Below the pieces are notes generated by a model. That model worked only from the letters and a program-made list of their open reading frames with translations, did no database searches and was not told the origin of the DNA. Position numbers and translations under genes: made by a program. Of a DNA stretch of 64,000 nucleotides, positions 3,942 to 19,715 are shown one piece after another. The DNA lies in NCBI GenBank assembly GCA_043803385.1, contig JAZDKA010000010.1:989-64988 (forward strand), written 5' to 3'. The first letter of the stretch is position 1. Every line of letters begins with the position of its first letter. The stretch comes from Patescibacteria group bacterium. Its GTDB lineage: Bacteria > Patescibacteriota > Minisyncoccia > Moranbacterales > JAKLHP01.

Positions 3942-5645
3942 TTAATTTATTTTTAAATCAACTATCTTTAACTGGATTTTTTTGTTTCCATTCCAGTTGT
4001 CTTCGGAAATATTGAAAACGATATCGATTTTATCGCCCGTTTTCAAGCGGCTAAAGCCGTTGGTAAGATTAAAGCCGATGGCTTCAAATATTTTTGGCGT
4101 GCCATCTTGCGCTTTAAGCAATAATTTCAAATGTTTTTCGCCGCTTCCCACCTTCGTTAAATTTTCCACTAACAAATTTTTCATCAAAAACACCGGTTCT
4201 TCGTTTCCCTCTCCGAACGGTTCAAATTTTTTAAGCTGGTCCGTTAGTTCAAAATCCAAATCTTTGGGAAATATTTCCGAATCTATTTCCAGATACAAGC
4301 TTAAATCCTTTCCTGCTAGCTCTTTATTGATAACTTCCGAAAGTTTTTCGAAAAATTTATCCAAGTTTTCGTTCTTTATTGTGATTCCGGCCGCTTGGCT
4401 GTGCCCGCCGAACTTAACCAAAAATTTCGAGCATTTCTCGATAGCCTTAATAATATTAACTTGCGGAATGCTTCGAAATGATCCTTGCCCGATTTTTTCG
4501 CCTTTGTTTATTATCGCTACCGGCTTATTGAATTCGTCGGAAATTTTTCCGGCCGCCAGACCCACTATTCCAATCGGAAAATGCCCGGATACCGCGAAAA
4601 TAAAATTTTTGTCCTTAAACATATTTTCCGACACCATTCTTACTTCATTCACGATCTGCTCCGTTGCTTTTTGGCGCGCTTGATTATTTCCTTCTAATTC
4701 CAAGGCCAATTCTCTGGCCCGCGCTTGATCAGTTTCCATTATTAAATTAAAAGCGCTGTTGGCATGGTCCATTCTTCCGGCCGCGTTGATTCTGGGAGCA
4801 ATTTGAAACGAAATTTTTCTTGTGTCAGGAAAATTGTTTTCATCAATTTTGAGGCGGGCTACTTCAAAAAGCTCAAGAAGCCCTTTTCTTCTGGTTTTAG
4901 AAAGCACTATCAGCCCAAATTTTGCTATAATCCTGTTTTCTTCCACAAGCGGAACGCAATCAGCCACTGTTCCAATGGCGGCTAAATCCAGGATCCACTT
5001 CAGCTGTTCTGTCTCGCTTGGAAAAAATTCTCCATAGAGAGCTTCAATAAATTTGAAAACCACGCCTACGCCGGCAAGCTTTTGAAAAGGATAACCTGAT
5101 TTTTTAAGGTTGGGATTTATTATTGCCAAAGCTTCCGGAATATTTTCCGGGACATAATGATGGTCGGTGATAATTACATCCATTCCGTATTCCTTCGCTT
5201 TTTTTGCTTCTTCTATATTGGTAATTCCGCAATCGACAGTGATAATTAATTTCACATTCTGCTCTTTGAATTCTTCTATGGCTTTAAGATTCATTCCATA
5301 TCCCTCCAGCTTCTTGTCAGGAATATAAACGATGGTTTTTATTCCTATTTTTTCCAGAGCTTCCTTAAGAATGGCCGAAGCAGTAACGCCGTCAGCGTCA
5401 TAATCTCCAAAAATAGCCGTCAGCTCATTATTTTCCTTAGCTTTTTTTGTTCTTTCGACAACTTTTTTCATTTCGGAAAATAAAAAGGGGTCAAGAAGCC
5501 CTTTTTCATAATTTGGATAAAGAAAACCGTTTATTTTTTCTTCACTGTCAAAACCTCGGTTGAAAAGTATCTGCAAGGCTATTGGATGAAGGTTTGGCAA
5601 TTCAATATTTTCTACTCTAGTTTTTTCTTTAAGTTTCCAATTCAT
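3942..5645 (-). CDS. recJ: Single-stranded-DNA-specific exonuclease RecJ
   Basis: DHH motifs (ITVDCGI, DVIITDHH) followed by a DHHA1 region; 567 aa. Confidence 0.85.
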   Translation of the reverse strand: MNWKLKEKTRVENIELPNLHPIALQILFNRGFDSEEKINGFLYPNYEKGLLDPFLFSEMKKVVERTKKAKENNELTAIFGDYDADGVTASAILKEALEKIGIKTIVYIPDKKLEGYGMNLKAIEEFKEQNVKLIITVDCGITNIEEAKKAKEYGMDVIITDHHYVPENIPEALAIINPNLKKSGYPFQKLAGVGVVFKFIEALYGEFFPSETEQLKWILDLAAIGTVADCVPLVEENRIIAKFGLIVLSKTRRKGLLELFEVARLKIDENNFPDTRKISFQIAPRINAAGRMDHANSAFNLIMETDQARARELALELEGNNQARQKATEQIVNEVRMVSENMFKDKNFIFAVSGHFPIGIVGLAAGKISDEFNKPVAIINKGEKIGQGSFRSIPQVNIIKAIEKCSKFLVKFGGHSQAAGITIKNENLDKFFEKLSEVINKELAGKDLSLYLEIDSEIFPKDLDFELTDQLKKFEPFGEGNEEPVFLMKNLLVENLTKVGSGEKHLKLLLKAQDGTPKIFEAIGFNLTNGFSRLKTGDKIDIVFNISEDNWNGNKKIQLKIVDLKIN

Positions 5646-5651
5646 AATAAA

Positions 5652-6224
5652 TCATTTCACCTGCCATCCGCAGGAAGGACAGATTAAATAGGCTTCCATC
5701 CCTTCTTCTTTCTTGTTTCCGGTTATAATTTTAAGAATTAGTTCATCATCGCATTCAAGGCATTGAAATTTGTTGTTGAGCCCCCGATCCTGGGCAAGCT
5801 TTTGCGCGTCAAGCGAGTATTTGTTCAGCTCAAGCCGGTATTCTTTTTCTCCCAAAAACAATGATTTCACTTTTTCTACCACTTCTTTAGGTGATGTAAA
5901 TCCTCTCACTACAAAATATTTTGCTCCTAAAACATTGGCTCTTTGCCTGTCTTCCTCTCTTCCCATATGCGACGATATTATTACCGGTATATTAGCAGTA
6001 GCTAAATTTTTCTTCAAAGCTTCCATCATGGAAAAACCGTCCATTCTGGGCATTATTATTCCAGTGAAGATAACATCAGGAGATTCCGTAGTGGCTTTAT
6101 CCAGTCCTTCGACTCCATCCCCAGCTTCAGTAACCTGAAAGCCAGCATTCTTAAAAACATCGGCATACATTTCTCGCGTTGGCACATCATCGTCAACAAA
6201 CAGTATTTTTATTTTTTTATCCAT
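5652..6224 (-). CDS. Response regulator receiver-domain protein with C-terminal zinc ribbon
   Basis: CheY-like REC (VDDD...D..MP..DG); C-terminal CxxC...CPSC. Confidence 0.7.
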   Translation of the reverse strand: MDKKIKILFVDDDVPTREMYADVFKNAGFQVTEAGDGVEGLDKATTESPDVIFTGIIMPRMDGFSMMEALKKNLATANIPVIISSHMGREEDRQRANVLGAKYFVVRGFTSPKEVVEKVKSLFLGEKEYRLELNKYSLDAQKLAQDRGLNNKFQCLECDDELILKIITGNKKEEGMEAYLICPSCGWQVK

Positions 6225-6236
6225 GTTTTTGAAAAA

Positions 6237-8342
6237 TTAAATGATTATCTTGACATCGACGGCGATTGCCGGATTGTTATCATTATAAATGAGCATTGGA
6301 TTAATATCAAATTCCTTGATTCCGCCAATTTCCCCCGCCAGCATTGATAATTTTAACAGGATTTCCGAAATCTCTTCAAGGTTATATGGGTTTTGTCCGC
6401 GGTTCCCTTGGAATAAAAATCTTATCGGGCTTTTTAGAATAATATTTTTTATTTCATTCAAGCTGGCCGGAGGCAAAATAAAATCAACCATTTTGAAAAC
6501 TTCAGTATAAATTCCTCCCAGCCCGAACATCACCGCCGGGCCGGCTGTTTCATCTTTTTTTATTCCCAAAATCAGCTCTGTTTTTATTTCCTTCATCGGC
6601 TGGATAATAATATTTTCCTTGGGAAAATTTTCCGCCATTTTTTGGTAGGCTTTCCTGAAATCATCCTCATTTTTGATGTTTAAAATAACCCCTTCCCTAT
6701 CGGTTTTATGGAGCACTTTGTCACTATCTACTTTCATTACCATCGGGAAATCGATTCCCAACTCCTTTTCTGTATTAATTTCTTGGAATTCCACGGTGCT
6801 TATTTCATAAATATCCATAATTTCTTTTGTTTCCCGGAAATATAAAGCGCTTCTTCCTTCGGACTTTGCCCTTTTGATAATATCACCGGTTTTAACTATT
6901 CTATCACTGTCAAGTTCCACTGGATTTTTGCTGATTTCTACTTTGTTCCTATTAATTTCCCACTCATAATATTTATCCAAGGCATTTATGGCGTCATCGG
7001 GAAAAATATAATTGGGAATTTCGCTTTCTTTCAAATACTCTACCGATTTCTCTATTTTCTTTCCTCCCAAAAACGCCGCAACGATTGTTTTCTTGGTTTT
7101 GTTTTTGAATTCTGCTATTTTTTTGGCAATTTTTTCAGAAGGGGTGTTTTCCTGCGGGGTAAGAATGGTAATTATTGATCCGGCATCTTCTTTGCCAATT
7201 TCTTCCAGTGTTTTTTCGTAGCGTTCTTCCCCGGCATCTCCCAAGAGGTCAATAGGATTTTCCAGCGATGACTCTTGAGGTAAAAATTTCCGCAGTTTAT
7301 TTTTTGTTTCTTCATTTATTTCAGCTAGTTTTATTTCTTTTCCCCTAAAAGCATCGGTAGCAAGGACTCCGGGTCCTCCGGCATTGGTAATAACAACCGT
7401 TTTTTCATTAAGAGGAGCGTCTGTTAATGAAATTAGCTTAACTATGTCAAAAAAATCTTCCAATGTTTCAATTTCAATTATTCCCGTCTTTTTAAAAAGC
7501 GCTTTTATTATTTCTTGGCTTCCGGCCAAAGCTCCAGTATGCAATGAAATGGCTTTCAAAGATTTTTCAGTTTTTCCGGCTTTGAGAACCACGACCGGTT
7601 TTGATTTCGATACTTTTTTCGCGATTTCCTTGAATTTTACCCCATCTTTTATCCCTTCAAGATACATTCCAATTATTTTAGTTTCAGGATCTTTTTCCAA
7701 GTATTCCAATAAATCATTTTCGCCGATATCCATTTTGTTCCCGACGGAGATGATATTGGAAAATCCAACATTGTCTTGGGAGGCAATATCCAGAAGAGCG
7801 CTGATGATGGCTCCTGATTGGGAAATAAGGGAAATATTTCCGGCTTTTGGCATTCCCCCGGCAAAGGAAGCGTTCAATTTTAATCTTGGAATAATGAAAC
7901 CCAGGCAATTTGGGCCCAGGATATTCAAATCTTTTGCTTTGGCAATTTCCAAAAGTTCTTCTTCCCGATTTTCTCCTTCTTCTCCTATCTCGGAAAATCC
8001 GGCGGAAATTATAACAAAATTTCTCGCCCCCACACCAAAATGGTTCAAAGATAAATCTTTGGTGTGGGGGTGAACCTTATTTGAGGCATTTTTAACCACT
8101 TCCAAAACGAATTTAGCAGGTATGGCGATTATAGCCAAATCAACCTGCTCCTTGATTGCTTCAAGGTTGGGATAGCAGTCTTGGCCCGAAAGTTTTTCAT
8201 GCTTAGGATTTACCAAAAAAACCTTGCCCTCATAACCAAGATTCAAAAGATTATTCACAATCGCCGTTCCTACTTTCCCCTCTTCGTCCGTCGCGCCGAC
8301 AATGGCGATTGACTGGGGATTAAATAATTTTTCCAGTTCCAT
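6237..8342 (-). CDS. Acetyl-CoA synthetase (ADP-forming), fused alpha/beta
   Basis: 701 aa; N-terminal CoA-binding (IAIVGAT...GKVG), succinyl-CoA-synthetase-like and ATP-grasp regions. Confidence 0.8.
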   Translation of the reverse strand: MELEKLFNPQSIAIVGATDEEGKVGTAIVNNLLNLGYEGKVFLVNPKHEKLSGQDCYPNLEAIKEQVDLAIIAIPAKFVLEVVKNASNKVHPHTKDLSLNHFGVGARNFVIISAGFSEIGEEGENREEELLEIAKAKDLNILGPNCLGFIIPRLKLNASFAGGMPKAGNISLISQSGAIISALLDIASQDNVGFSNIISVGNKMDIGENDLLEYLEKDPETKIIGMYLEGIKDGVKFKEIAKKVSKSKPVVVLKAGKTEKSLKAISLHTGALAGSQEIIKALFKKTGIIEIETLEDFFDIVKLISLTDAPLNEKTVVITNAGGPGVLATDAFRGKEIKLAEINEETKNKLRKFLPQESSLENPIDLLGDAGEERYEKTLEEIGKEDAGSIITILTPQENTPSEKIAKKIAEFKNKTKKTIVAAFLGGKKIEKSVEYLKESEIPNYIFPDDAINALDKYYEWEINRNKVEISKNPVELDSDRIVKTGDIIKRAKSEGRSALYFRETKEIMDIYEISTVEFQEINTEKELGIDFPMVMKVDSDKVLHKTDREGVILNIKNEDDFRKAYQKMAENFPKENIIIQPMKEIKTELILGIKKDETAGPAVMFGLGGIYTEVFKMVDFILPPASLNEIKNIILKSPIRFLFQGNRGQNPYNLEEISEILLKLSMLAGEIGGIKEFDINPMLIYNDNNPAIAVDVKIII

Positions 8343-8409: not shown

Positions 8410-8441
8410 ATTACACCCACATACTAGTATGTGGGTGTAAT
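8410..8441. promoter_or_regulatory. 32-bp perfect palindrome ATTACACCCACATACT|AGTATGTGGGTGTAAT
   Basis: 16+16 perfect inverted repeat in the intergenic region upstream of the acetyl-CoA synthetase gene; no adjacent U-run. Confidence 0.5.
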
Positions 8442-8537: not shown

Positions 8538-8795
8538 CTATTGACCTTGAACAACGAGACGATAAGTTTTAACTTCTATCCCATTGTTTGCGAGCTGAAA
8601 TAGTATACCATCAGCTTTTTGCATTGCCAATATCTCGTTTTCTGAAGGAAATGAGAAATAAATATTAGGGATGCAATCTATCGGCTCACATAAAAATGGC
8701 TTCGGATCGACTCCTGAAATCTTTCTCTTTATCTCTCTTCTGCTTCTTTCTTTGTCAACAGCTACTTCTAAAATGCAACGTAGAATCCAATTCAT
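8538..8795 (-). CDS. Hypothetical protein
   Basis: 85-aa ORF with AAGGAGG SD 4 nt upstream of ATG; immediately downstream of dnaJ. Confidence 0.5.
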   Translation of the reverse strand: MNWILRCILEVAVDKERSRREIKRKISGVDPKPFLCEPIDCIPNIYFSFPSENEILAMQKADGILFQLANNGIEVKTYRLVVQGQ

Positions 8796-8837: not shown

Positions 8838-9941
8838 CTAATCCAAACTCTTTAATTTCTCTATAATCTCTTTTTGCTCCCTTGTCAAATGTTTTGGGAT
8901 TTTGACGATAATTTTGACCAAGTGGTCGCCTCGGCCGCGCCGGTCTAAAAACGGCACGCCTTCGTCTTTGATTTTAAAAATTTCTCCTGATTGGGTTCCG
9001 GCGGGGACTTTCATCTTTAGCATTCCATTTATTGTGTCAATATCAATTTTATCTCCCAGAACCGCTTGGGAAAAGGTGATATGTTCACTGGAAATAATAT
9101 TATTTTTCTCTCTTTTAAATTTCAGATGGGGAATGACATGGATATTGACATACAAATTTCCGCTGGGCGCGCCTTTTTCTCCGGCTTCTCCCCGTTCTTC
9201 AAGCGATAGCGTTTGCCCATCCTGAATCCCAGCCGGAATATCAATTTCAATTCTCTCTTCTTCTTTTACTCTGCCATCGCCTCCGCACCTGTGGCATTTG
9301 TCAGAATTGATTTCTCCCGCTCCTTGGCAAGTCGGACAAGTTGAAACTTGAGAAAAACTTCCAAAAAAGCTTTGCATTGTTTTTCGAACTTGTCCGCTTC
9401 CATGGCAAGCCGGGCAAGTTTCTTTTTTGGCTCCCGGTTCTCCTCCGGTTCCGTGGCATCGGCCGCAAACCGCATTTTTATATAAATTAATAATTTTTGA
9501 GGCGCCCCTGACCATTTCTTCGAAAGTAATTTCTATGTCAATCTGAATATCTTTTCCGGGTTTTTTTCTGGTTTTTCTCCTGTTTCCGAAATTTCCGCCA
9601 AAAATATCAGAAAAAATATCATCGAAACCGATGTCTTGAAAATCCCAGCCTCCAGTTGGTCCGCCTTGGTTTTGATTAAATCCTTGGAATCCAGAAAAAT
9701 CGAAGCCTCCAAAACCGCCTGCTTGCCCGGCTTCAAAAGTCTGGCCGAATTGGTCGTATTGCTGGCGTTTCGCCTTGTCGGAAAGCACTTGATAAACAGC
9801 GTTTATTTCCTTGAATTTCTTTTCATCCCCGCCTGATTTGTCAGGATGATGCTTATGCGCCAGTTTCCGATAAGCCTTTTTTATCTCGTCATCCGACGCA
9901 GTCTTCGAAACGCCTAATATGTCATAATAGCTAGTAGCCAT
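8838..9941 (-). CDS. dnaJ: Chaperone DnaJ
   Basis: J-domain with HPD ([12 protein letters not shown]), Gly/Phe-rich linker, four CxxCxGxG zinc-finger repeats. Confidence 0.9.
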
Positions 9942-9969
9942 AAAAATATATTATCATAACAAATAAAAA

Positions 9970-9996
9970 TTAGCAATCCCAACCGGCGAGTGCTAA
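9970..9996. promoter_or_regulatory. CIRCE-like operator upstream of dnaJ
   Basis: TTAGCAATC-N9-GAGTGCTAA; overlaps a TTGCTA-17-TAATAT minus-strand promoter. Confidence 0.7.
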
Positions 9997-10017
9997 TTGG
10001 TAGATCGGCAAATAAAA

Positions 10018-10050
10018 TAATGAAGGTGCCCGTACGCAGACGACCACCTT
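10018..10050 (-). terminator. Intrinsic terminator of the 10058 gene
   Basis: GAAGGTG...CACCTTC hairpin followed by ATTATTTTATTT on the minus strand. Confidence 0.5.
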
Positions 10051-10057
10051 CTTTGTT

Positions 10058-10480
10058 TTACCTTATAAGATTTTTCATTGCCTTTCTTGCAAAAGAAACC
10101 ACTTCTTTTCTTTTTTCGTGTTTATGCTCTTCTAAAATATCCGTTATGTCTATTAGTACATCGCCTATTTTCATACATTTATATATGTAATCTAAAAAGG
10201 CTTCTTCCTCTGTTAGCTCTCCTTTTATGCAGCTCTTGTAACATTCGAAGGACATTATAATAACATACCTTTCAAATGATTTAGGTACCTCCTCGGTGAA
10301 TGGGGAAAATTCTTCTCCCTCTTTATAAAACCCGTATTTATCACCGATTTTTATAAGGATTATTTTTTCCTTAATACTTCCGAGTTTTGAAAAAAACTCA
10401 TCCGATTCCCCTCTTAAATAATCTCTAAGCCAATCCAGCTCTTCTTTTCTGGTTTTGGGTTTTCTTCTTAATGCTATCAT
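10058..10480 (-). CDS. Hypothetical protein
   Basis: Start chosen at MIALRRK preceded by GGGAGGG SD; AT-rich; own terminator hairpin at 10018-10050. Confidence 0.5.
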   Translation of the reverse strand: MIALRRKPKTRKEELDWLRDYLRGESDEFFSKLGSIKEKIILIKIGDKYGFYKEGEEFSPFTEEVPKSFERYVIIMSFECYKSCIKGELTEEEAFLDYIYKCMKIGDVLIDITDILEEHKHEKRKEVVSFARKAMKNLIR

Positions 10481-10682
10481 GATACCCTCCCGCAAATTTA
10501 TTTTAATTTATTTTAAAAAAACTTTCCTCCAATATCTATATTCATATCTATATCATCCCATTAAATTAATGTCAAAATTTAAAAAGCTTGCCCTGCAGCA
10601 AGCTTCTTGTCCTGTAGTCAACTTGTTGTACTACCGGGATGCTTTGCTACAGGGTTATCCACAGCCCCCTCAAATTTGACAT

Positions 10683-10710
10683 TTGACAAATTTATGCCTT
10701 GAAGTAGAAT
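10683..10710 (+). promoter_or_regulatory. Promoter TTGACA-16-TAGAAT for the 10845 secreted-protein gene
   Basis: Hexamer spacing; preceded by a duplicated AAATTTGACATTTGACA motif. Confidence 0.4.
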
Positions 10711-10844
10711 TAAGATAAGGAAGTTTTTTTGACAACTTTGTTAAAGCAAACGTATTAAAAATACTTTATGAAGGGAGGTGAACTTTTTTCGGCAGATTTG
10801 GGGAATTAACCCCAAAAAAGTTTTTCCTGAAACAAGGAGGAAAC

Positions 10845-11174
10845 ATGAAAAAAATTTTTATAGTAGTACTGTTTTTGGCTCTTATGACACTGACGTCTCA
10901 GGCGTACGCAATTGGCACAACGGGTCCTCCGGCAGACTCAATCGGGACCACAGTCGCCACATCAACCTACCCCCATGCAGGCACTAACGTTGCGACCGTG
11001 ACGGCACCCGATTGGGACAGCAGAAGCCAGAAGGTCGCCAAGGCAACTACCGTAAATAACCTGAAGAAAAGCGCGGCTGACACGGGCACTACGAATACCG
11101 AAATTGCCCCCGTCGCCGTGAATCTGGAGAAGATCAACATGAAGAGGACCGGCGGCGATTTAACGCTCGGCTGA
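10845..11174 (+). CDS. Small secreted protein (signal peptide, Thr/Ala/Gly-rich)
   Basis: AAGGAGG SD; N-terminal signal peptide ending AYA; markedly GC-richer than its surroundings. Confidence 0.6.
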   Translation: MKKIFIVVLFLALMTLTSQAYAIGTTGPPADSIGTTVATSTYPHAGTNVATVTAPDWDSRSQKVAKATTVNNLKKSAADTGTTNTEIAPVAVNLEKINMKRTGGDLTLG

Positions 11175-11206
11175 AGTGAAGGCGCCCTGGTTCAGAAGTA
11201 AAAAGT

Positions 11207-11224
11207 GGGGAGATTCGTCTCCCC
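11207..11224. terminator. GC hairpin GGGGAGA-TTCG-TCTCCCC
   Basis: Perfect 7-bp stem with tetraloop; U-run only on the minus side. Confidence 0.4.
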
Positions 11225-11225
11225 C

Positions 11226-11406
11226 GCAATACTAATTTCATTACGAACCGCCCTTCTACATCACATTTTTTGCCTGGATACCTCTGAAGGGCGGTGCAGT
11301 ACTATCTTCGGGTCTCTCTGCTATCCACCTATTACACGTAGCTTTACCACTTTATCATTAGTACCACTAGTGGAGAGGCTCACCAGCAATTCTTATACCC
11401 CGTTAT
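11226..11406 (+). ncRNA. Candidate structured noncoding region between two terminators (speculative sRNA or gene remnant)
   Basis: About 180 nt GC-richer noncoding stretch with GCCCTTC...GAAGGGC and CCACTAGTGG stems, ending at the 11407-11467 terminator; no SD or ORF. Confidence 0.2.
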
Positions 11407-11467
11407 TACAGGAGTTTCTCAAAACTAAGCGGAACTACGCTTTATTGAGAACCTCCTGTTTTTTTTA
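11407..11467 (+). terminator. Intrinsic terminator
   Basis: CAGGAGTTTCTCAA...TTGAGAACCTCCTG hairpin plus T8. Confidence 0.55.
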
Positions 11468-11490
11468 TTTCTCTTACAATTTTTTCAAGA

Positions 11491-11513
11491 CTATCGAGGT
11501 CGAACCTCGATAG
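11491..11513. repeat. 23-bp perfect palindrome CTATCGAGGTCGAACCTCGATAG (intergenic copy)
   Basis: Identical to the element inside cysS at 22222-22247. Confidence 0.7.
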
Positions 11514-11527
11514 AAGTTTTTCAATAA

Positions 11528-11560
11528 AAAACGAGGGATGCCTAAGGTATCCCTCTATTT
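11528..11560 (-). terminator. Intrinsic terminator of the 11566 gene
   Basis: GAGGGATACC-TTA-GGCATCCCTC hairpin followed by GTTTTTTATT on the minus strand. Confidence 0.6.
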
Positions 11561-11565
11561 GTGAC

Positions 11566-12213
11566 TCATTGATTTCTTTTCTGAAGCAACTTCTCCCATT
11601 GTCGCTTCAGTTCTTCGCAATTTTCCTTTGAAGGAGACTTGCCTTTCGATTTCCTGATTATTTTCCAAGCCTCATCAATAAGGGGCGGTTCCTTCAAGCC
11701 GTAGTACTTGATAATCCCCCTAAGGCTTATTTCTGAATATAGGCCAATTGGGAAAGGTCTCCCGTCGCCAATCTCGAGCAACATTACTTCCATGAAAGGC
11801 TGAGCTCTTAGTGTTATCTTTCCAGTAGCCCATTGAAGCACGGGTATGGTAAAGAATATTCCGGTCACACCTTCGATTGAAACTTTCCAGCCCATAGTTT
11901 CCCTCTTCTTCTCTTCTGTTCCAGAAAAGGAAAGGAGCTCCGATTGTATCTTCCATGAGCGTCTCATGTCCCTGACAGCTTTCTCAACGATAGCTATCAA
12001 GTTGGCTCCCAGTTTAGGTGATTGGTTTCTTATCTCTTTTCTTATACTCTCAATATCTTCATCACCCAGGGAAGCGACTCTTTCCGCTAGGTCTTTAGTG
12101 AAGATGTTTTCGCTGAAAACACCGTTGGCTCTTAGCTCAGAAAAAATGCTTACTAATCCTTTCGCCAAACTGCCAATTTCCTTCTCCGTCAATTCTTTTT
12201 GCGTTTCTTCCAT
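11566..12213 (-). CDS. Hypothetical protein
   Basis: 215-aa ORF; GC about 43%; followed by an intrinsic terminator at 11528-11560. Confidence 0.5.
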   Translation of the reverse strand: MEETQKELTEKEIGSLAKGLVSIFSELRANGVFSENIFTKDLAERVASLGDEDIESIRKEIRNQSPKLGANLIAIVEKAVRDMRRSWKIQSELLSFSGTEEKKRETMGWKVSIEGVTGIFFTIPVLQWATGKITLRAQPFMEVMLLEIGDGRPFPIGLYSEISLRGIIKYYGLKEPPLIDEAWKIIRKSKGKSPSKENCEELKRQWEKLLQKRNQ

Positions 12214-12427
12214 AATAACCTCCCTTTTTTATTTGACTCAAGAATAAAGAAACTTGTCCTAAATTTCCTTATTGTTAAGTCCAATTAAATCAAAGAACTT
12301 GATAATATAAACTAACGCTAAAAGATGGTTTTTGTCAATTAAAAAAAGCCACAAAATTAAAAGGCGGAGGAGTCGGTGTGATACCACGTATCACTTTCCA
12401 GCTCCTTCGCCATGCCCATATACTCAT

Positions 12428-12637
12428 TCATATGCCCCGTTCTCTGTAAAGATCTGCGAGGCCATCCAATAAAGTTGCATTGAGTCTTCTTCCTCTACTG
12501 GCAGCGCGTTTCCAAACTCTGCCAGAAGAAACCCTGAAAGCTCTTCTTAGTCTCCTCACTGCATTGGAGACCACAACATACTTGGTAGTACCCACTTGAA
12601 TAACTTCGTTATCGAATTTATTGCAATTCGTATTCAT
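12428..12637 (-). CDS. Hypothetical small basic protein (69 aa)
   Basis: Start MNTNCNK with GAGGAGGG SD 4 nt upstream; GC-rich; Arg-rich C-terminus. Confidence 0.45.
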   Translation of the reverse strand: MNTNCNKFDNEVIQVGTTKYVVVSNAVRRLRRAFRVSSGRVWKRAASRGRRLNATLLDGLADLYRERGI

Positions 12638-12705
12638 AAAACCCTCCTCTTCTTGGATTTTACTAAAGCATAACTCAAAAAAGAAAAAAATCAAGTTTTT
12701 AAATT

Positions 12706-12724
12706 ATCGAAGTCGGACTTCGAT
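12706..12724. repeat. Covarying variant palindrome ATCGAAGTCGGACTTCGAT
   Basis: Same architecture as ATCGAGGTCGAACCTCGAT with compensatory A/T for G/C changes. Confidence 0.5.
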
Positions 12725-12820
12725 TTTAGATTTAGATCATTTTCATTTTACCTATACTATAAAATTTAGCGTAGGCTAGAAATTATAGTATGATTTTTTA
12801 GTCTTTTGTAGTTTATATTT

Positions 12821-12852
12821 TATTCAGTATAAGTATACTAGTATACTGAATA
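12821..12852. promoter_or_regulatory. Inverted repeat TATTCAGTATA-N10-TATACTGAATA with palindromic ATACTAGTAT spacer
   Basis: 11-bp arms; intergenic. Confidence 0.35.
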
Positions 12853-12996
12853 ATTCATTTGATTATGTAATTAATTACTTACTTCAGTACGTACCAAGGT
12901 TAAACTGCTTAAATTATAATCTTTCCAATAAAAAAAGCGAGGGTGGTGAAAATCGTTATTTCCCCTCGCTTTACAAACTCTCCCGCATCTCCTTAT

Positions 12997-13446
12997 TTAG
13001 TGGCAGCATGAGTATTGGTAATCAAACCTGATTCCGTCGAGCCTGTCTTCCTTCAGCCATTCATAGTGTCCGTAGGCACAGAGTAAAAACAAAGAGTTCA
13101 TTGCAATGCAAATTGCAGCCGGCCGGACACTCTCTTCGGAAACCTGGAGAATGTCGCAGAGGATAAAGAATGCCAGTCCGCCCAGAAACCATGCGGAGAT
13201 ATTCATGACAATGAGAGTTGTCTTGATAATATCCTCGATTCTCATAATCTCACCGAGTTTATTTATCGGCAAGCGATTAACGCTAGCCGATGCAAGATGC
13301 CCGTAACATATAGCGAAGATCACACAACCCAGGATGGGAGAAATTGGATCCTTCAGATCTGAAGCCAGAAGAGAAAGGTTAAAAAAGTACAACGAGACTG
13401 CCAGTGAAACCAGTCCCAAAACAAGAAACACTCTTGCTTTATTCAT
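12997..13446 (-). CDS. Hypothetical integral membrane protein
   Basis: Start MNKARVF with AAGGAGG SD; about 4 TM helices; GC about 45%. Confidence 0.55.
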   Translation of the reverse strand: MNKARVFLVLGLVSLAVSLYFFNLSLLASDLKDPISPILGCVIFAICYGHLASASVNRLPINKLGEIMRIEDIIKTTLIVMNISAWFLGGLAFFILCDILQVSEESVRPAAICIAMNSLFLLCAYGHYEWLKEDRLDGIRFDYQYSCCH

Positions 13447-13673
13447 AACGCCTCCTTTTACCAATTTTGATTTATTTCTGATGAATAAAGAATAGCACCC
13501 TGCGGTACCAAAAGTCAATATTGTGTATTCAATTACTTACCTAATTCCCTTATTCTCCTATTCGCGCGCCCCGTAGCGTCCCGCCATGACGGGACTGCTT
13601 CTGGGGCGAATTAGAGATAGCATCTAGTATCAACAGCAAATTCTTCCAGTTTTTGGGTTGGTTGTTGGGACAA

Positions 13674-14453
13674 TTATAATTTGATTATTGTTAGTAATGA
13701 ATATAATCCAATAATAGCGGTTATAATGAGAAATAAAATATCTCCAAGTATATATCTTAACTCATCATTAAATAATCCTCGTTTACTTAGTTTTTCTATT
13801 TTCAGTAAGCATTTTATTTCATGATAACATTTATTTAAATTTGGAAATTTGCTATTAGAAAAATATTCTGGTGTGCCTATTCCGTCTATATGTATCATTT
13901 TTTTTAGAATATAAATATATCTTATGTATTTAATAATATCAAGAGATTCATTTAACCTTTCATAATCATTATTTTTAATAGTTGTATTTTTTTGTTCAGA
14001 TTCTATTTCTGTTTTTTTATTTTCTATGACATTTTCACATTCAATATAATTTCTGTTTTTTAAATTTTTTTCATAAAAATCAAATGATTTCAAAAGAATT
14101 TTTGTGTCAGAATATTTAAAAGAATTAAAATTATCAATTAAGTGATTGAATCTTTCAACAAGTTGAATGAAGTAAGTTAATTGAGAGGATAATTTAGCGC
14201 TGATAAGGCTACTATTTACGATATCTGGAACTATTGAAGTGTCAACTTTATAAACGATTTCTCCAGGATAAAACCATGCCTCTTTATTTAAATCTTTTGG
14301 ATATGAAGAAGAGAACCATTCACCTGCTGTATTTAAAAGAGCTTCAAGGGCGTTTATTATTTTTTTATATTCAGCTATCATGCTTAATCTATATATCAAC
14401 CAACCAGAAATTATCGCAATTGATGCTAAAAATATTTCTATCTTTAATTCCAT
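13674..14453 (-). CDS. Hypothetical membrane-anchored protein (N- and C-terminal TM, Lys/Asn-rich)
   Basis: 259-aa ORF, very AT-rich, TM helices at both ends. Confidence 0.45.
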   Translation of the reverse strand: MELKIEIFLASIAIISGWLIYRLSMIAEYKKIINALEALLNTAGEWFSSSYPKDLNKEAWFYPGEIVYKVDTSIVPDIVNSSLISAKLSSQLTYFIQLVERFNHLIDNFNSFKYSDTKILLKSFDFYEKNLKNRNYIECENVIENKKTEIESEQKNTTIKNNDYERLNESLDIIKYIRYIYILKKMIHIDGIGTPEYFSNSKFPNLNKCYHEIKCLLKIEKLSKRGLFNDELRYILGDILFLIITAIIGLYSLLTIIKL

Positions 14454-14509
14454 AACTTTTGTTTATATTATTTAAAGGCGGGGGATTTAACCCCGCCTAA
14501 AATTAGTCG

Positions 14510-16429
14510 TTACTTTTTTTCTTCTTTCTTTTCGGTTTTCTTTTCTGTTTCAGCTTCTTTTGGTTCTCCATCCTTCGCTGAAGCTTCGGACTGGCTAGCG
14601 CCTTCCGTAGCTTTAGCGGAGGCGGCTTGGGCAGCGGCATACAGCTTCTGGCCGATCTTTTGGGCTTCTTGGGAAAGCGCTTCAGTGGCTTTCTTAATAG
14701 CTTCCAGGTCATCGCCATTTTTTACCTTATTCAGTTCTTCGATCTTTTCCTGAACCGGTTTCTTTTCATCTTCCGTAATTTTATCTCCGGCTTCGCGCAT
14801 GGCTTTTTCGATGGTATATGCCAAAGTGTCGGCCATATTGCGCGCTTCAACTAATTCTTTCTTTTTTTTGTCTTCTTCCGCATGAATTTCCGCATCTTTT
14901 TTCATTCTCTCAATCTCATCCTTGGAAAGGCCGCTGGAAGCTTCGATTCTGATTGATTGAGTCCGTCCGGTGGCTTTGTCTTTGGCAGTGACGCTCAAAA
15001 TTCCATTGGCGTCAATATCAAAAGTAACTTCAACTTGCGGAATGCCTCTCGGAGAAGGCGGGATTCCATCCAGAATAAACCTTCCCAGCGATTTATTTCC
15101 TTCTGCCATTTCCCTTTCTCCCTGAAGCACATTAATTTCCACGCTGGGCTGGTTGTCAGCCGCGGTGGAAAATACCTGCGACTTGGAAGTCGGAACAGTG
15201 GTATTTCTGGAAATTAATGGCGTGGAAACTCCCCCTAAAGTTTCAATTCCAAAAGTCAACGGAGTAACATCGAGCAATAGCACGTCTTTAACCGAGCCTT
15301 CCAAAACTCCTCCCTGAATTGCGGCGCCTACCGCCACTACTTCATCCGGATTTACCGAAAGGTTTGGTTTCTTTCCAAAAAATTTCTCAACAGTTTTCAA
15401 TACTAGTGGCATTCTGGTCATTCCTCCGACCATAATTACTTCGTGAATATCTTTAGCTTCCAGCTTAGCATCTGCCAGCGCTTTCTTCATCGGTTCCAAA
15501 GTTTTTTCAACTAAATCGTGAACCAGTTCTTCCAGTTTGGCTCGGGAAAGCTTCATTACCAAATGCTTCGGACCGCTGGAATCGCTGGTGATGAACGGTT
15601 GGTTGATTTCGCTTTCCATAGCGGTTGAGAGCTCTATTTTTGCTTTCTCCGCCGATTCTTTGACTCTTTGAAGCGCCAAAGGGTCTTTGGACAAGTCAAT
15701 TCCTTCCTGCTTCTTATATTCGTCCAAGATCCAAGCGATTATTCTCTGGTCAAAATCGTCTCCTCCGAGATGGGTATCTCCATTGGTGGATTTTACTTCT
15801 ACAGTATCATCGCCGACTTCCAGAATGGAAATATCATAAGTTCCCCCTCCCAAATCATAAACAGCGATTTTCTCTTCTTTCTTTTTGTCAAAACCATAAG
15901 CCAGAGCGGCGGCTGTCGGTTCATTGATAATTCTTTTCACGTTGAATCCGGCAATTTCTCCCGCTTCTTTAGTGGCTTTTCTTTGAGAGTCGTCAAAATA
16001 GGCCGGAACAGTGATGACTGCGTCAGTAATTTTTTCACCAAGTTTTGCTTCCGCGTCTTGCTTTAATTTTTGGAGGATCATGGCGGAAATTTCCTGCGGA
16101 GTATATTCTTTTCCGCCCATTTCCACTTTAGTTCCGCCATTGGATTTGACAATTTTGTAAGACAGAAGTTTTAAATCTCTTTGCACTTCCGCGTCCTCAA
16201 AATGCCTGCCGATTAATCTCTTAATAGAAAACAATGTGTTTCCCGGATTGGTGACAGCTTGACGCTTAGCCAAAAGGCCGACTAGCCTTTCGTTGGTTTT
16301 GGAAATCGCCACCATTGACGGAGTGGTTCGGTTCCCTTCTTTGTTTTCGATTATTTCCGGCTTGCCTCCGGAAACTACCGCCATCGCGGAGTTGGTAGTC
16401 CCCAAATCTATTCCAAGTATCTTGGACAT
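14510..16429 (-). CDS. dnaK: Chaperone DnaK (Hsp70)
   Basis: [26 protein letters not shown] signatures; 639 aa. Confidence 0.95.
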
Positions 16430-16587
16430 ATTATTTGTTTTCTAATAAATAGCTTTGGATAGCTAATAATTAGAATAATTTAAAATTTAAATCTCAAAAT
16501 GCAAAATGACAATGTAAATGTTAAAATAATTTTTAATTTTTAACTGACATTTTGAACTTTGATTTTTTAACTTTAAACTTTTTTGGT

Positions 16588-16615
16588 TTGACAAATTACT
16601 AAGCTATGTTATATT
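16588..16615 (+). promoter_or_regulatory. Sigma-70-type promoter (TTGACA-16-TATATT)
   Basis: Near-consensus hexamers; drives the 16650 small ORF, antisense to the heat-shock operon. Confidence 0.55.
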
Positions 16616-16649
16616 GAGAGCAAAATCTATTTTGAGGAGGTAGTTCTTT

Positions 16650-16805
16650 ATGGCAAAGGGAAAAATGTTTTTAACGGACGAAAGAACCGCGGGTGTAAAC
16701 GAAAAAAATAACGTGACCGATATCCGCAGAAAAAAAGAACCCGTGAAGAAAAACTTTCGAACAAGAGGGCGACCGCATATCGCACGAGCAGGTTGCTTAA
16801 GATAA
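16650..16805 (+). CDS. Small basic ORF (51 aa), or coding part of an sRNA; expressed from the strongest promoter in the window
   Basis: TTGACA-16-TATATT promoter, GAGGAGG SD 9 nt upstream of ATG; long hairpin plus U-run at 16806-16880. Confidence 0.3.
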   Translation: MAKGKMFLTDERTAGVNEKNNVTDIRRKKEPVKKNFRTRGRPHIARAGCLR

Positions 16806-16954
16806 ACACAGACCCCATACCACCCGCATTCGCAGGTGTTCTTTATCCCCATTGAGTGTCATGCTCTTTGGGGTCTTTTTTTATCATTTATTCACTTGCC
16901 AAAAAACATTTTAATGCTTATGATAATCTTACCAAATTACTAAGGAGGTGCCCG

Positions 16955-17209
16955 ATGGACATCACGGCAGTAGATTTAAATATGTTCATCCATGATTTGC
17001 AACACAAAGATGAAAGTCATCTCACCAAAGACCAAAGAGGAAAGGTAAAATCGGCGTTATCAGAAACAGAAAAGCTTCTTAGGAGATTATCTGGTCATGA
17101 CTTTATAGCTATTCCCATAGGGAAATACAATTTTATCCAAAGGATAGCTAGCGAGAAACCAATCGTCCAAAAACCCAAACCACGATTCAATCAAATCCAT
17201 CCTTTATAG
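16955..17209 (+). CDS. Hypothetical protein (84 aa)
   Basis: AAGGAGGTG SD; followed by terminator CTCGGGA..TCCCGAG plus T7. Confidence 0.5.
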   Translation: MDITAVDLNMFIHDLQHKDESHLTKDQRGKVKSALSETEKLLRRLSGHDFIAIPIGKYNFIQRIASEKPIVQKPKPRFNQIHPL

Positions 17210-17218
17210 CTATTACGC

Positions 17219-17258
17219 TCGGGATTGCAGCCGCTTTCCCGAGAATTTTTTTGCCATT
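17219..17258 (+). terminator. Intrinsic terminator after the 16955 gene
   Basis: CTCGGGA-N11-TCCCGAG plus T7. Confidence 0.65.
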
Positions 17259-17429
17259 TTGCCATTTTTGTCTGTGAGGCACGAACAGAAACAAAAATGA
17301 GCATCCCTCATCAATTCTATTCTGTGATATTTAAATTTAAAAATACTTGAGCCGCAGGCGATTCCGTGAATTAGAGCTATGAATTATCCGTAGTCTCTAA
17401 TCGGAATTGGTGCGGGATAATTTCAATAT

Positions 17430-17987
17430 TTATCCTACAACCACTTTCACCGCCCGAATGACTTTATCTCCAATTTTATATCCTCTGCTGATAACTTTTT
17501 TAATCTTATTTCCTGATTTCTGTTCACTGTCCTCTGATTCTTGATGGACTGCTTCATGCAAATTTGGATTAAACTCATCTCCTTCTTTCGCTTCAATTTC
17601 TTCAATTCTATTGTCTTTCAGAATAGTTTCTAATTGGCGCTGGATATGCAATATCCCCTGGACCCACGCTCCATCTTTTTGGTTTTCAGGAACATGATCC
17701 AACGACATCTGAAAATTATCCACGACCGGCAGAATCTGCAACGCTAAATCTTCCAAAATCAGCTCTTTAAATTCCTTTTTTGATTCATCCTGCTTTTTTC
17801 GGTAATTCTCAAAATCCGCTTGGCAACGTTTCCATCCTTCGAGATTTTTCTGTTCTTCTGATACTTCCTCAGTTTCTTTGGTATCTTCTTTTTTCAATTC
17901 TTCCTTACTTCCGTTCTCTTTTTTATCTTCTTCAGTTTTTTTTGCTTCGCCCGTCGTAGCTTTAGCGAAGGAGGGTTTTTTAAACAT
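17430..17987 (-). CDS. grpE: Nucleotide exchange factor GrpE
   Basis: GWKR.QADFENYRKK and FNPNLHEAV motifs. Confidence 0.85.
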   Translation of the reverse strand: MFKKPSFAKATTGEAKKTEEDKKENGSKEELKKEDTKETEEVSEEQKNLEGWKRCQADFENYRKKQDESKKEFKELILEDLALQILPVVDNFQMSLDHVPENQKDGAWVQGILHIQRQLETILKDNRIEEIEAKEGDEFNPNLHEAVHQESEDSEQKSGNKIKKVISRGYKIGDKVIRAVKVVVG

Positions 17988-17989
17988 AA

Positions 17990-18781
17990 TTATCTTATTA
18001 CTAAATATAAATTACCAGCTACTATTAATACCGCTGACGAGCTTAAAAGCTTCTTCATATATTCAATCAGGGATTTATTTTTGGCGTATTTCATCCGCTT
18101 AGGGCCGATTAGCGCCAGAATTCCTTTTTCTCCTCCCTTAAGCTTGTAGGAGGAAACTACCATTGAGCAATTGGATATTCCGTCAATCGGATTTTCTTTG
18201 CCGATGTATATTTTCGTTTCATTTTCTTTGAGGTCTTTGGCGATATTTTCAAATTTTTCATCTACCACGTCCAAAACTTCCACTAATTTACAAATTTCGC
18301 CTATATCTTTAAATTCCGGCTGATTAATGAGGCTTTTTATTCCCGATTCAAAAAATTCTTCCTTTTTAGTTGCCCCCGTAAGAGCCAGCGCTCCGCTAAA
18401 TCCGGAAAGCAGTTTTACAACCGTCCTTTCCAATCTGGTATTTTTGGCTTTGAGTTTCAGAAGTTCCGCTTGAAGCTTTTTCTGTTCATTCAGGGAAAGC
18501 TCCCTATCTTTCATTATTTCTTCCACGAAATATCGGTAGCCTTCGTCAGTCGGAATTCTTCCGGCGCTGATATGGGGCTGGTATAAAAATCCGTCTTTTT
18601 CAAGATTTACCATATCGTTTCGAATCGTTGCCGTGCTAGCTTTAATCTTGTGTTTTTTTACTAAAATCTCGCTCGAAACAGGAATAGCCGTGTTGGTATA
18701 TTCCTCAATGACCGATGTTAGGATTTTCTGTTGCCTTGCGTTCATAAAGTCAGTGATCAGAGAACAGTGGCCAATGGCCAA
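17990..18781 (-). CDS. hrcA: Heat-inducible transcription repressor HrcA
   Basis: N-terminal winged HTH (RQQKILTSVIEEY...PVSS) and HrcA C-domain; CIRCE just upstream; true start may be the internal MNARQQ. Confidence 0.85.
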   Translation of the reverse strand: MAIGHCSLITDFMNARQQKILTSVIEEYTNTAIPVSSEILVKKHKIKASTATIRNDMVNLEKDGFLYQPHISAGRIPTDEGYRYFVEEIMKDRELSLNEQKKLQAELLKLKAKNTRLERTVVKLLSGFSGALALTGATKKEEFFESGIKSLINQPEFKDIGEICKLVEVLDVVDEKFENIAKDLKENETKIYIGKENPIDGISNCSMVVSSYKLKGGEKGILALIGPKRMKYAKNKSLIEYMKKLLSSSAVLIVAGNLYLVIR

Positions 18782-18824: not shown

Positions 18825-18851
18825 TTAGCAGTCGTCAAGTCCGAGTGCTAA
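18825..18851. promoter_or_regulatory. CIRCE operator (HrcA site) upstream of hrcA
   Basis: TTAGCAGTC-N9-GAGTGCTAA, one mismatch to consensus TTAGCACTC-N9-GAGTGCTAA; flanked by TTGACA-17-TATTAT on the minus strand. Confidence 0.8.
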
Positions 18852-19440: not shown

Positions 19441-19715
19441 AATTTACTTATAGCTTATATTAAAAATTTTGGCAATCCCAGCACCAATTCCGATAAAGTT
19501 TTAGTCTAAACTTATAGATTAATTCTCGGAATCGCCTTCGGCTTATCTAATCGAACATGATAGCCACATTATAAAATTGGTACGGGATGCTCATAATTGT
19601 AGCTTCTCATTTCACTCAAAGACAATTATGGCATTAAAAAAACCAGTAACGATGTACCGGCTTTGGGATCCGTCGGATTGTTTTCCAACGAATCCCCCCT
19701 ATGAAATTCCTCTTA

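Follow-up and report, generated by a model that had tools for sequence, protein, structure and literature searches.

Why do dnaK and dnaJ lie 4,568 bp apart in a 64-kb stretch of contig JAZDKA010000010.1 from a Patescibacteria group bacterium, and why does dnaJ carry an operator of its own? The stretch (hereafter the window, to which all positions refer unless another locus is named) was taken from a 65.6-kb contig of a metagenome-assembled genome (MAG), and locus tags V1804_01250 to V1804_01285 cover the region. A previous interpretation made from the letters of the DNA alone, here called the sequence-only reading, had regarded the gap between both genes as a 4.5-kb insertion that broke the operon and led dnaJ to acquire a CIRCE (controlling inverted repeat of chaperone expression) operator. 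Our comparison with related loci points in another direction: the dnaK-dnaJ interval is likely to be an old operon break that now serves as a hotspot of gene turnover, rather than the product of a single recent insertion. What looks, in a single genome, like foreign DNA that was inserted recently would then be an ancient, clade-wide rearrangement of a heat-shock operon with rewired regulation of dnaJ. The genes and operators on which the argument is built are the following.

8838-9941, minus strand: dnaJ, 367 amino acids (aa), from the open reading frame (ORF) call and the NCBI name molecular chaperone DnaJ; a stand-alone heat-shock gene
9942-9998, minus strand: dnaJ promoter region, with a promoter-like site at 9982-9953 and no Shine-Dalgarno (SD) sequence
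9970-9996, strand-neutral: CIRCE operator TTAGCAATC-N9-GAGTGCTAA, the presumed HrcA binding site
14510-16429, minus strand: dnaK, 639 aa (ORF call, NCBI name)
17430-17987, minus strand: grpE, between hrcA and a 1-kb spacer upstream of dnaK
17990-18781, minus strand: hrcA (Pfam HrcA match, E=9e-24)
18825-18851: second CIRCE, upstream of hrcA-grpE, overlapping TTGACG-17-TATAAT

The dnaJ operator and the age of the split

The CIRCE at 9970-9996 proposed by the sequence-only reading is well supported. It shows a single mismatch to the consensus TTAGCACTC-N9-GAGTGCTAA, and the 64-kb window contains two CIRCE sites whereas none occurred in 100 shuffles. Measured from the ATG of dnaJ, the site lies 29-55 nt upstream, where it overlaps the promoter-like sequence TTGGGA-18-TATGAT; the CIRCE of hrcA carries the −35 element (TTGACG) in its spacer. 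All features of a CIRCE/HrcA system looked for at dnaJ were found, namely the inverted repeat, its position at the promoter of a heat-shock gene, and the presence of the hrcA repressor gene. Since dnaJ has its own CIRCE within its promoter, it can be regarded as an independent unit predicted to be under HrcA repression, and the comparison described below shows the same predicted unit across the DnaJ clade to which the window belongs. With the −10 element only some 10 nt away from the ATG, the lack of an SD on dnaJ suggests that its mRNA may be near-leaderless and that HrcA would block its initiation. A motif scan of the window revealed no CIRCE of its own for dnaK within 3 mismatches, which makes HrcA control of this gene uncertain.

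We compared 160 loci around dnaJ homologues, taken from species-representative genomes and Joint Genome Institute (JGI) metagenomes, and located hrcA, grpE, dnaK, dnaJ and CIRCE in each of them. Loci were classified as adjacent if dnaJ follows within 700 nt after dnaK, and as split if the gap measures at least 700 nt or if no dnaK is present within at least 3 kb upstream. A CIRCE no more than 400 nt upstream of dnaJ was found in none of 71 adjacent loci but in 39 of 63 split loci. Thus, the idea that the operator is tied to lost co-transcription with dnaK holds, except that the present 4.5 kb did not bring this about.

The DnaJ protein of the window is 58-73% identical to Moranbacteria DnaJ, the best matches being MAGs labelled Candidatus Moranbacteria/Moraniibacteriota or Patescibacteria, and DnaK shares 81-86% identity with its relatives. 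All loci with a DnaJ at least 57% identical to that of the window and with enough upstream sequence are split, nearly all of them having a CIRCE 60-220 nt before dnaJ. When 149 distinct DnaJ sequences were clustered on identity distances by the unweighted pair group method with arithmetic mean (UPGMA), the window fell into a cluster of 54 members, of which 43 are split, 11 are undeterminable, and none is adjacent. The 44 dnaJ-CIRCEs detected overall all belong to this cluster, where they are located 33-301 nt (mostly 60-130 nt) upstream of the gene in 44 of the 54 loci. Conversely, 63 of 66 adjacent loci fall outside the cluster and its nearest neighbours. Because no locus of the clade is adjacent (0 of 54) and 44 carry a dnaJ-CIRCE, the operon break and the HrcA operator of dnaJ appear to be ancestral; both would have arisen once, deep in the lineage, and before the present gap content. 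The proposal that the 4.5-kb block broke the operon and led to the gain of the CIRCE is not tenable, given that the split and the dnaJ-CIRCE are found clade-wide and are older than the content of the gap. Blastn against about 20 relatives detected conservation of the gap DNA only at its positions 1-57, that is, in the dnaJ promoter and CIRCE.

Occupants of the interval

As counted by the sequence-only reading, the two genes are parted by five to six genes without annotated function, i.e., five annotated hypothetical proteins (V1804_01260 to V1804_01280; here A, B, C, E and F) plus a candidate gene D that is unannotated by NCBI.

10058-10480, minus strand: gene A (V1804_01260), 140 aa; soluble, Glu/Lys-rich, GC 0.34; SD GGGAGGG
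10845-11174, plus strand: gene B (V1804_01265), 109 aa; signal-peptide-like N-terminus, Thr/Ala/Val/Gly-rich; SD AGGAGG
11566-12213, minus strand: gene C, 215 aa; soluble ORFan; SD GGGAGG
12428-12637, minus strand: candidate gene D, 69 aa; 17% Arg, pI 11.5; SD AGGAGG
12997-13446, minus strand: gene E (E149), 149 aa; membrane protein with four transmembrane (TM) segments; SD AAGGAGG
13674-14453, minus strand: gene F (F259), 259 aa; no SD; Ile/Leu/Lys-rich, with a hydrophobic stretch at either end

Gene B is the sole plus-strand gene in the gap, and the ORF of gene A reaches 10495 if a TTG start is used. Two AT-rich membrane proteins had been suggested previously, which is correct for F and not for the soluble, Glu/Lys-rich product of A, whose gene has a GC content of 0.34.

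None of the gap ORFs matched a Pfam, NCBIfam, PHROG or PADLOC family at the curated cutoff or with convincing significance, the best score being that of E against a PHROG family of unknown function, which stayed below the threshold (E=2.9e-5). Word-indexed searches of 5.8e9 proteins with A and C returned the self-match only, and searches of PDB sequences with the same two proteins gave no match; the exact sequence of D is absent from the 5.8e9-protein collection, and B and E represent singleton clusters at 90% identity. Single-sequence AlphaFold2 models of C and D are poor, with predicted local distance difference test (pLDDT) scores of 46 and 55, respectively. For D, the model has a beta-beta-alpha-alpha arrangement, and there are sub-threshold matches to the SpoIIID helix-turn-helix and MatP ribbon-helix-helix domains (E 0.13-0.23), weak grounds on which its product might possibly be a small DNA-binding protein. 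For gene F, the word-indexed search gave one partial homologue, a frameshifted copy with 59% and 48% identity on a 936-bp contig of 30% GC from run ERR7570002; a terminator-like hairpin lies in front of this copy, too. Elsewhere in the 64-kb window, the gap proteins have no paralogues. Most likely the gap specifies accessory, surface or niche-related proteins that would have no role in the chaperone system. Specifically, we predict accessory envelope or secreted proteins together with one small basic, regulator-like protein, all independently expressed.

In relatives that have both genes on one contig, the dnaK-dnaJ gap ranges from 1.9 to 9.3 kb, and the 4.57 kb of the window are unremarkable in this respect. 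The sequence-only reading had regarded shared genes between dnaK and dnaJ in relatives as a sign of vertical inheritance; genes are indeed present there, yet they are mostly different ones. They encode a saccharopine-dehydrogenase-like protein, a GNAT acetyltransferase, a 23S rRNA intervening-sequence protein (IVP)-like four-helix protein, and NUDIX, HD and HAD hydrolases. A multi-TM protein of about 330 aa is conserved immediately upstream of CIRCE and dnaJ in 11 Moranbacteria relatives (at 4594-5661 in locus L001, 8919-9893 in L004, 8429-9424 in L006, and in 8 other loci). Survival of this protein in the window as a diverged E or F was considered and rejected, the profile search of the 64-kb window being empty. 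None of the six gap ORFs was found by tblastn in the 160 dnaJ loci, where only chance matches appeared even at E≤1. An exhaustive HMMER search with E detected a full-length homologue (P0005; 49-52% identity), and its gene is located on JGI contig Ga0395807_0001402 (locus L162) between dnaK and dnaJ. The gap of L162 measures 8.36 kb and contains 15 genes, among which E is the only one in common with the window and the protein of about 330 aa was not seen; DnaJ and DnaK of both loci are 68% and 86% identical, respectively. Because the homologue of E occupies the same dnaK-dnaJ interval in L162, E can be considered an older resident of this site. A literature search brought up no description of such an arrangement in Patescibacteria, although it varies themes that are well known.

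The mosaic composition of the gap was confirmed, as both extreme GC values of the 64-kb window lie inside it. Over 1,275 sliding windows of 300 nt, GC averages 0.370 (standard deviation 0.050), with a global maximum of 0.573 at 10901-11200 (z +4.1) and a global minimum of 0.19 at 13801-14200 (z −3.6). All six 300-nt windows with a GC content above 0.50 fall at 10801-11350, and the seven lowest at 13651-14250. The gaps of 15 relatives are less extreme (z −3.0 to +2.4). In a composition test for genomic islands, the mean GC of the gap (0.370) proved to be the same as that of the window, whereas individual genes deviate strongly in both directions. Relative to a background GC content at third codon positions (GC3) of 0.355 ± 0.057, determined for 47 long ORFs of the window, the values are B (0.61, z +4.5), E (0.51, z +2.7), C (0.46, z +1.8) and F (0.15, z −3.5). 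In terms of overall GC, B is the strongest GC-rich outlier (0.53) and F an extreme AT outlier (0.24). Of the several GC-richer genes named in the sequence-only reading, B alone is a strong outlier, the elevation being mild in C, D and E; moreover, the background amounts to 0.37 instead of the presumed 0.30-0.33, and dnaK and dnaJ themselves reach 0.43-0.45. The homologue of E in L162 is likewise GC3-rich (0.45), and its elevated GC3 is thus a property of the gene rather than a mark of recent transfer.

Could the abrupt changes in GC at about 10.8, 11.4, 13.65 and 14.45 kb reflect an artefact of assembly or binning, i.e., reads of more than one population wrongly joined into a chimera? The origin of the DNA from a 65.6-kb MAG contig is compatible with such an error, which we nevertheless regard as highly improbable. 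Both flanks (hrcA-grpE-dnaK on one side, CIRCE-dnaJ and the gene for ADP-forming acetyl-CoA synthetase on the other) are syntenic with those of relatives, the gap size is within the range of the clade, and the homologue of E occupies the corresponding locus of an independent assembly. Moreover, several separate chimeric joins would be required.

Strong GGAGG-type SDs had been noted on the gap genes and are present on five of the six ORFs. When counted with first-ATG starts and a minimal SD length of 5 nt, AGGAGG-type SDs of 5-6 nt precede 5 of 6 gap ORFs as compared with 4 of 45 long window genes (Fisher p = 3e-4). Two further small ORFs, one of 85 aa after dnaJ and one of 84 aa between grpE and dnaK, are also SD-led. 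The accessory ORFs of the locus use an initiation mode that is exceptional in this genome, and across the window it is for the most part small accessory ORFs that are SD-led. In 16 of the 45 long genes, a TAnnnT box ends 4-12 nt before the ATG. Leaderless or otherwise SD-independent initiation may be widespread in the window. The SD-led pattern could fit cassettes that arrived with their own signals, or simply monocistronic genes with 5' untranslated regions.

Taken by themselves, these features are compatible with a single, recent, horizontally acquired island that split dnaK from dnaJ and forced the gain of the dnaJ-CIRCE: all sampled relatives lack five of the six ORFs, the GC extremes fall within the gap, the strong SDs are atypical for the genome, and the membrane protein gene of about 330 aa present in 11 relatives is missing next to dnaJ of the window. 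We nevertheless consider such an event very unlikely. The split and the CIRCE of dnaJ are common to the whole clade, E149 is syntenic in L162, and the outliers are opposite in direction while the mean GC equals that of the genome. As stated in the sequence-only reading, integrase, transposase and tRNA genes are missing: no integrase, recombinase or transposase was detected when the six gap ORFs were scanned against Pfam, NCBIfam and PHROG, and the whole window is devoid of tRNA and tmRNA genes. There is no att-like repeat or inverted repeat either, the repeats around the gap being short and at chance level. Matches at the DNA or protein level in phage, plasmid and viral collections are also lacking, as judged from blastn of the gap against 50,697 phage records and a plasmid collection and from IMG/VR scans for viral relatives of B, C, E and F. 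What can be retained of the insertion reading is that the gap content is lineage-specific and heterogeneous; the occurrence of E in L162 and the opposite outliers argue against its arrival in a single recent step.

Three types of known element were considered for the gap and rejected. A genomic island or integrative element was dismissed on the basis of missing mobility genes, tRNA, att sites and inverted repeats, and of the fact that the gap is not present or absent as a unit (E alone occurs in L162). For a prophage remnant, PHROG matches were only sub-threshold, phage blastn gave no match, and IMG/VR yielded no relatives. For an anti-phage defence system, PADLOC models produced 0 matches with the gap ORFs at E≤0.1.

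Signals and structured elements of the locus

Promoter-like and terminator-like sequences are present between the genes of the gap. The hairpins after genes A and E and next to dnaK, as well as the promoter of gene C, were read from the sequence, and those in the spacer between B and C were listed by a terminator scan.

10022-10051, minus strand: terminator-like hairpin GAAGGTG...CACCTTC followed by ATTATTTTATTT, after gene A
10683-10710, plus strand: promoter-like site TTGACA-16-TAGAAT (11/12) for gene B
11175-11565: non-coding spacer of 390 nt between the convergent genes B and C, five to six hairpins, GC 0.41-0.49
11207-11224 (minus strand), 11491-11513 and 11533-11555: terminator-like hairpins in the B-C spacer
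about 120 nt upstream of gene C, minus strand: TTGACA promoter of gene C, with the gene C terminator at 11533-11555
12820-12853: palindrome of 34 nt, TTATTCAGTATA-N10-TATACTGAATAA, in the AT-rich 360-nt spacer upstream of D (self inverted match)
12929-12970, minus strand: terminator-like hairpin with a T7 run, after gene E
13568-13607: GC-rich hairpin in the F-E spacer, fold z −2.2
14477-14497, minus strand: hairpin GGCGGGG-N7-CCCCGCC, directly 3' of the dnaK stop codon

At the borders of the interval, the hairpin at 14477-14497 is a probable dnaK terminator, which the terminator scan did not list because its T-run is weak, and that at 10022-10051 may insulate dnaJ from upstream transcription. 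It is possible, if speculative, that the palindrome at 12820-12853 functions as an operator. In front of the L162 homologue of E, neither the F-E spacer hairpin nor any conserved leader was found.

The fold of the spacer between B and C reaches a z-score of −4.65 on the minus strand and of −4.75 on the plus strand, and none of the shuffles was equally stable. A comparison with Rfam gave no family at gathering thresholds and only chance-level matches at E≤10, and homologues of the spacer are absent from the 160 dnaJ loci. We regard 11175-11565 as a candidate structured RNA or terminator stack. The terminator-like hairpin CTATCGAGGTCGAACCTCGATAG... at 11491-11518 recurs at 22225-22252 near the 3' end of cysS, with 96% identity over 28 nt.

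A spacer of this kind is also relevant to the view that the gap genes are native ORFans, either fast-evolving or formed de novo, and that their composition reflects amino acid content, expression or structured RNA. The high structure of the 390-nt spacer and the second copy of the 11491-11518 hairpin at 22225-22252 in the same genome fit this explanation, as do the search results for A and C (self-matches only among 5.8e9 proteins) and for D (absent from this collection), and the vertical sharing of E149. In addition, the high GC of B stems in part from its Thr/Ala/Gly/Pro-rich composition (GC content at second codon positions 0.51). However, GC3 values of 0.61 for B and 0.15 for F are hard to derive from amino acid content alone. 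The homologue of F is AT-rich as well and comes from an unrelated sample, which hints at a transferable or wider family, and SD-led initiation contrasts with the predominantly SD-less mode of the genome. On balance, an exclusively native origin seems unlikely, and we favour an old operon break followed by gene turnover.

A further structured element is associated with start codons. It consists of about 90 conserved nt with a hairpin of 16 bp, formed by pairing of CAUUUUUGU with ACAAAAAUG; the ORF downstream of the element starts with the AUG contained in this hairpin.

17255-17345, minus strand: window, first copy
19546-19640, plus strand: window, second copy
9912-10002 of L008, 684-775 of L027 and 12225-12315 of L012: copies in relatives

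In L008 and L027 the downstream ORF is dnaJ, and the element is placed between CIRCE and ATG. Among the five sequences, 6 of 16 pairs show compensatory changes and 97% of the cells are paired; 0 of 500 shuffles reached the covariation score. A search of 60 sources (0.9 Mb in total) with a covariance model detected no additional copy, and there was no match to Rfam. The element may act as a translational or thermosensing switch; alternatively, it may represent a mobile element of small size or a palindromic site in the DNA. Both window copies extend to about 165 nt (17255-17420 and 19475-19640; 69.5% identity) and, being inverted and facing outward, flank a 2.4-kb segment with hrcA, grpE, a 65-aa ORF and yidD. 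Downstream of each copy lies a short ORF (24 codons in one case, about 36 in the other), which extends in antisense orientation into the 3' end of an opposed SD-led small ORF.

The surroundings of the interval comprise the following additional features.

6237-8342, minus strand: gene for ADP-forming acetyl-CoA synthetase, downstream of dnaJ and the 85-aa ORF
8410-8441: perfect 16+16-nt palindrome ATTACACCCACATACT/AGTATGTGGGTGTAAT, in the stretch that separates the 85-aa ORF from the acetyl-CoA synthetase gene
8538-8795, minus strand: 85-aa ORFan V1804_01250 with a strong SD, between dnaJ and the acetyl-CoA synthetase gene
16955-17209, plus strand: SD-led ORF of 84 aa in the grpE-dnaK spacer, no family match

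On the minus strand, the order is thus CIRCE, hrcA, grpE, the 1-kb spacer with its plus-strand ORF, dnaK, the gap, CIRCE, dnaJ, the 85-aa ORF and the acetyl-CoA synthetase gene. Neighbours within about 7 kb on each side of the gap have housekeeping functions (EamA transporter, RecJ, response regulator, YidD, CorA, CysRS). While grpE and dnaK adjoin each other in most relatives, they are 1 kb apart in the window (16430-17429), and the corresponding junction of L162 likewise holds two opposite-strand ORFs. The junction between dnaJ and the acetyl-CoA synthetase gene contains nothing in L001 and a PGA_cap gene in L162; it is a third variable junction of the same locus. One might go further and view the dnaK-dnaJ, grpE-dnaK and dnaJ-acetyl-CoA synthetase junctions of Moranbacteria as a preferred landing site that, without dedicated mobility machinery, captures foreign or newly formed genes as SD-led cassettes complete with promoter and terminator, in a genome most of whose genes lack an SD and look leaderless. 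To this model one could add a new structured RNA of about 300 nt (11175-11480) and a start-codon hairpin acting as a new translational, possibly temperature-sensitive, switch. We consider this extended model quite unlikely.

Proposed gene turnover in the interval and comparison with known systems

Under the favoured reading, the split between dnaK and dnaJ came first, and its content changed thereafter. Because the dnaK terminator closes the interval on one side and a self-sufficient dnaJ promoter on the other, the site would tolerate the gain and loss of genes between these two signals. Filling may have occurred piecemeal, by six small self-contained units, all but F being SD-led and most of them equipped with promoter- and terminator-like signals. 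The occupants would thus be of mixed age and source, E149, common to the window and L162, being an older one. By contrast, the GC-rich block formed by the secreted protein B and the structured spacer, and also the AT-rich gene F, probably arrived later, each from another donor. The origin of the ORFans A, C and D is undeterminable.

Several points weigh against this account. The clade on which the age of the split is based rests on UPGMA clustering of DnaJ identities, which is not a proper phylogeny. The sample contains no relative above about 73% DnaJ identity, and the timing of gains is for this reason inferred only from composition and from presence or absence. Because there are no donor homologues, foreign origin is not demonstrated for any gap gene. 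The atypical GC3 values could reflect gene-specific constraints, A, C and D may be fast-evolving native or de novo genes, and D is perhaps not a gene at all. Finally, the transcription units proposed for the gap are deduced solely from consensus motifs.

If the favoured reading is correct, dnaJ of Moranbacteria, which belong to the candidate phyla radiation (CPR), would be regulated separately from the other genes through HrcA, and the locus would provide an example from a reduced genome of a turnover hotspot without traces of mobile elements. The six ORFans, including those predicted to be secreted or membrane-bound, are candidates for functions in niche or host interaction. The difference between SD-led accessory and SD-less core genes, and likewise the covarying start-codon hairpin, may merit separate study.

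The reference for this locus is the class I heat-shock operon hrcA-grpE-dnaK-dnaJ of the Bacillus subtilis type, which is controlled by HrcA and CIRCE. Gene order and strand are the same in the window, with hrcA in first position and a CIRCE at its promoter. Unlike the B. subtilis-type operon, however, that of the window is broken into hrcA-grpE, dnaK and dnaJ: an opposite-strand ORF parts grpE from dnaK, 4.6 kb part dnaK from dnaJ, and dnaJ has a second CIRCE.

With a classical genomic island the gap has in common that lineage-specific genes of atypical composition are placed between core genes; it differs by the lack of the mobility hallmarks tested, by a mean composition equal to that of the host, and by at least one old resident gene. 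Hotspots of gene turnover, or plasticity zones, between conserved core genes are a general concept of comparative genomics. The dnaK-dnaJ locus resembles them in its conserved flanks, an interval of 1.9-9.3 kb, largely non-homologous content and heterogeneous composition. It is distinguished from them by the absence of integrase, tRNA and mobile remnants from the gap of the window, by the nature of the occupants, which are tiny monocistronic ORFans, and by its setting in a reduced CPR genome.

A stand-alone dnaJ gene with its own CIRCE is known, for example, from Lactococcus lactis. Like its L. lactis counterpart, dnaJ of the window is detached from dnaK and preceded by a CIRCE-containing promoter. 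Unlike in L. lactis, the arrangement described here is a trait of a clade of Patescibacteria (Moranbacteria), and the CIRCE overlaps the −35 and −10 elements of an apparently near-leaderless gene.

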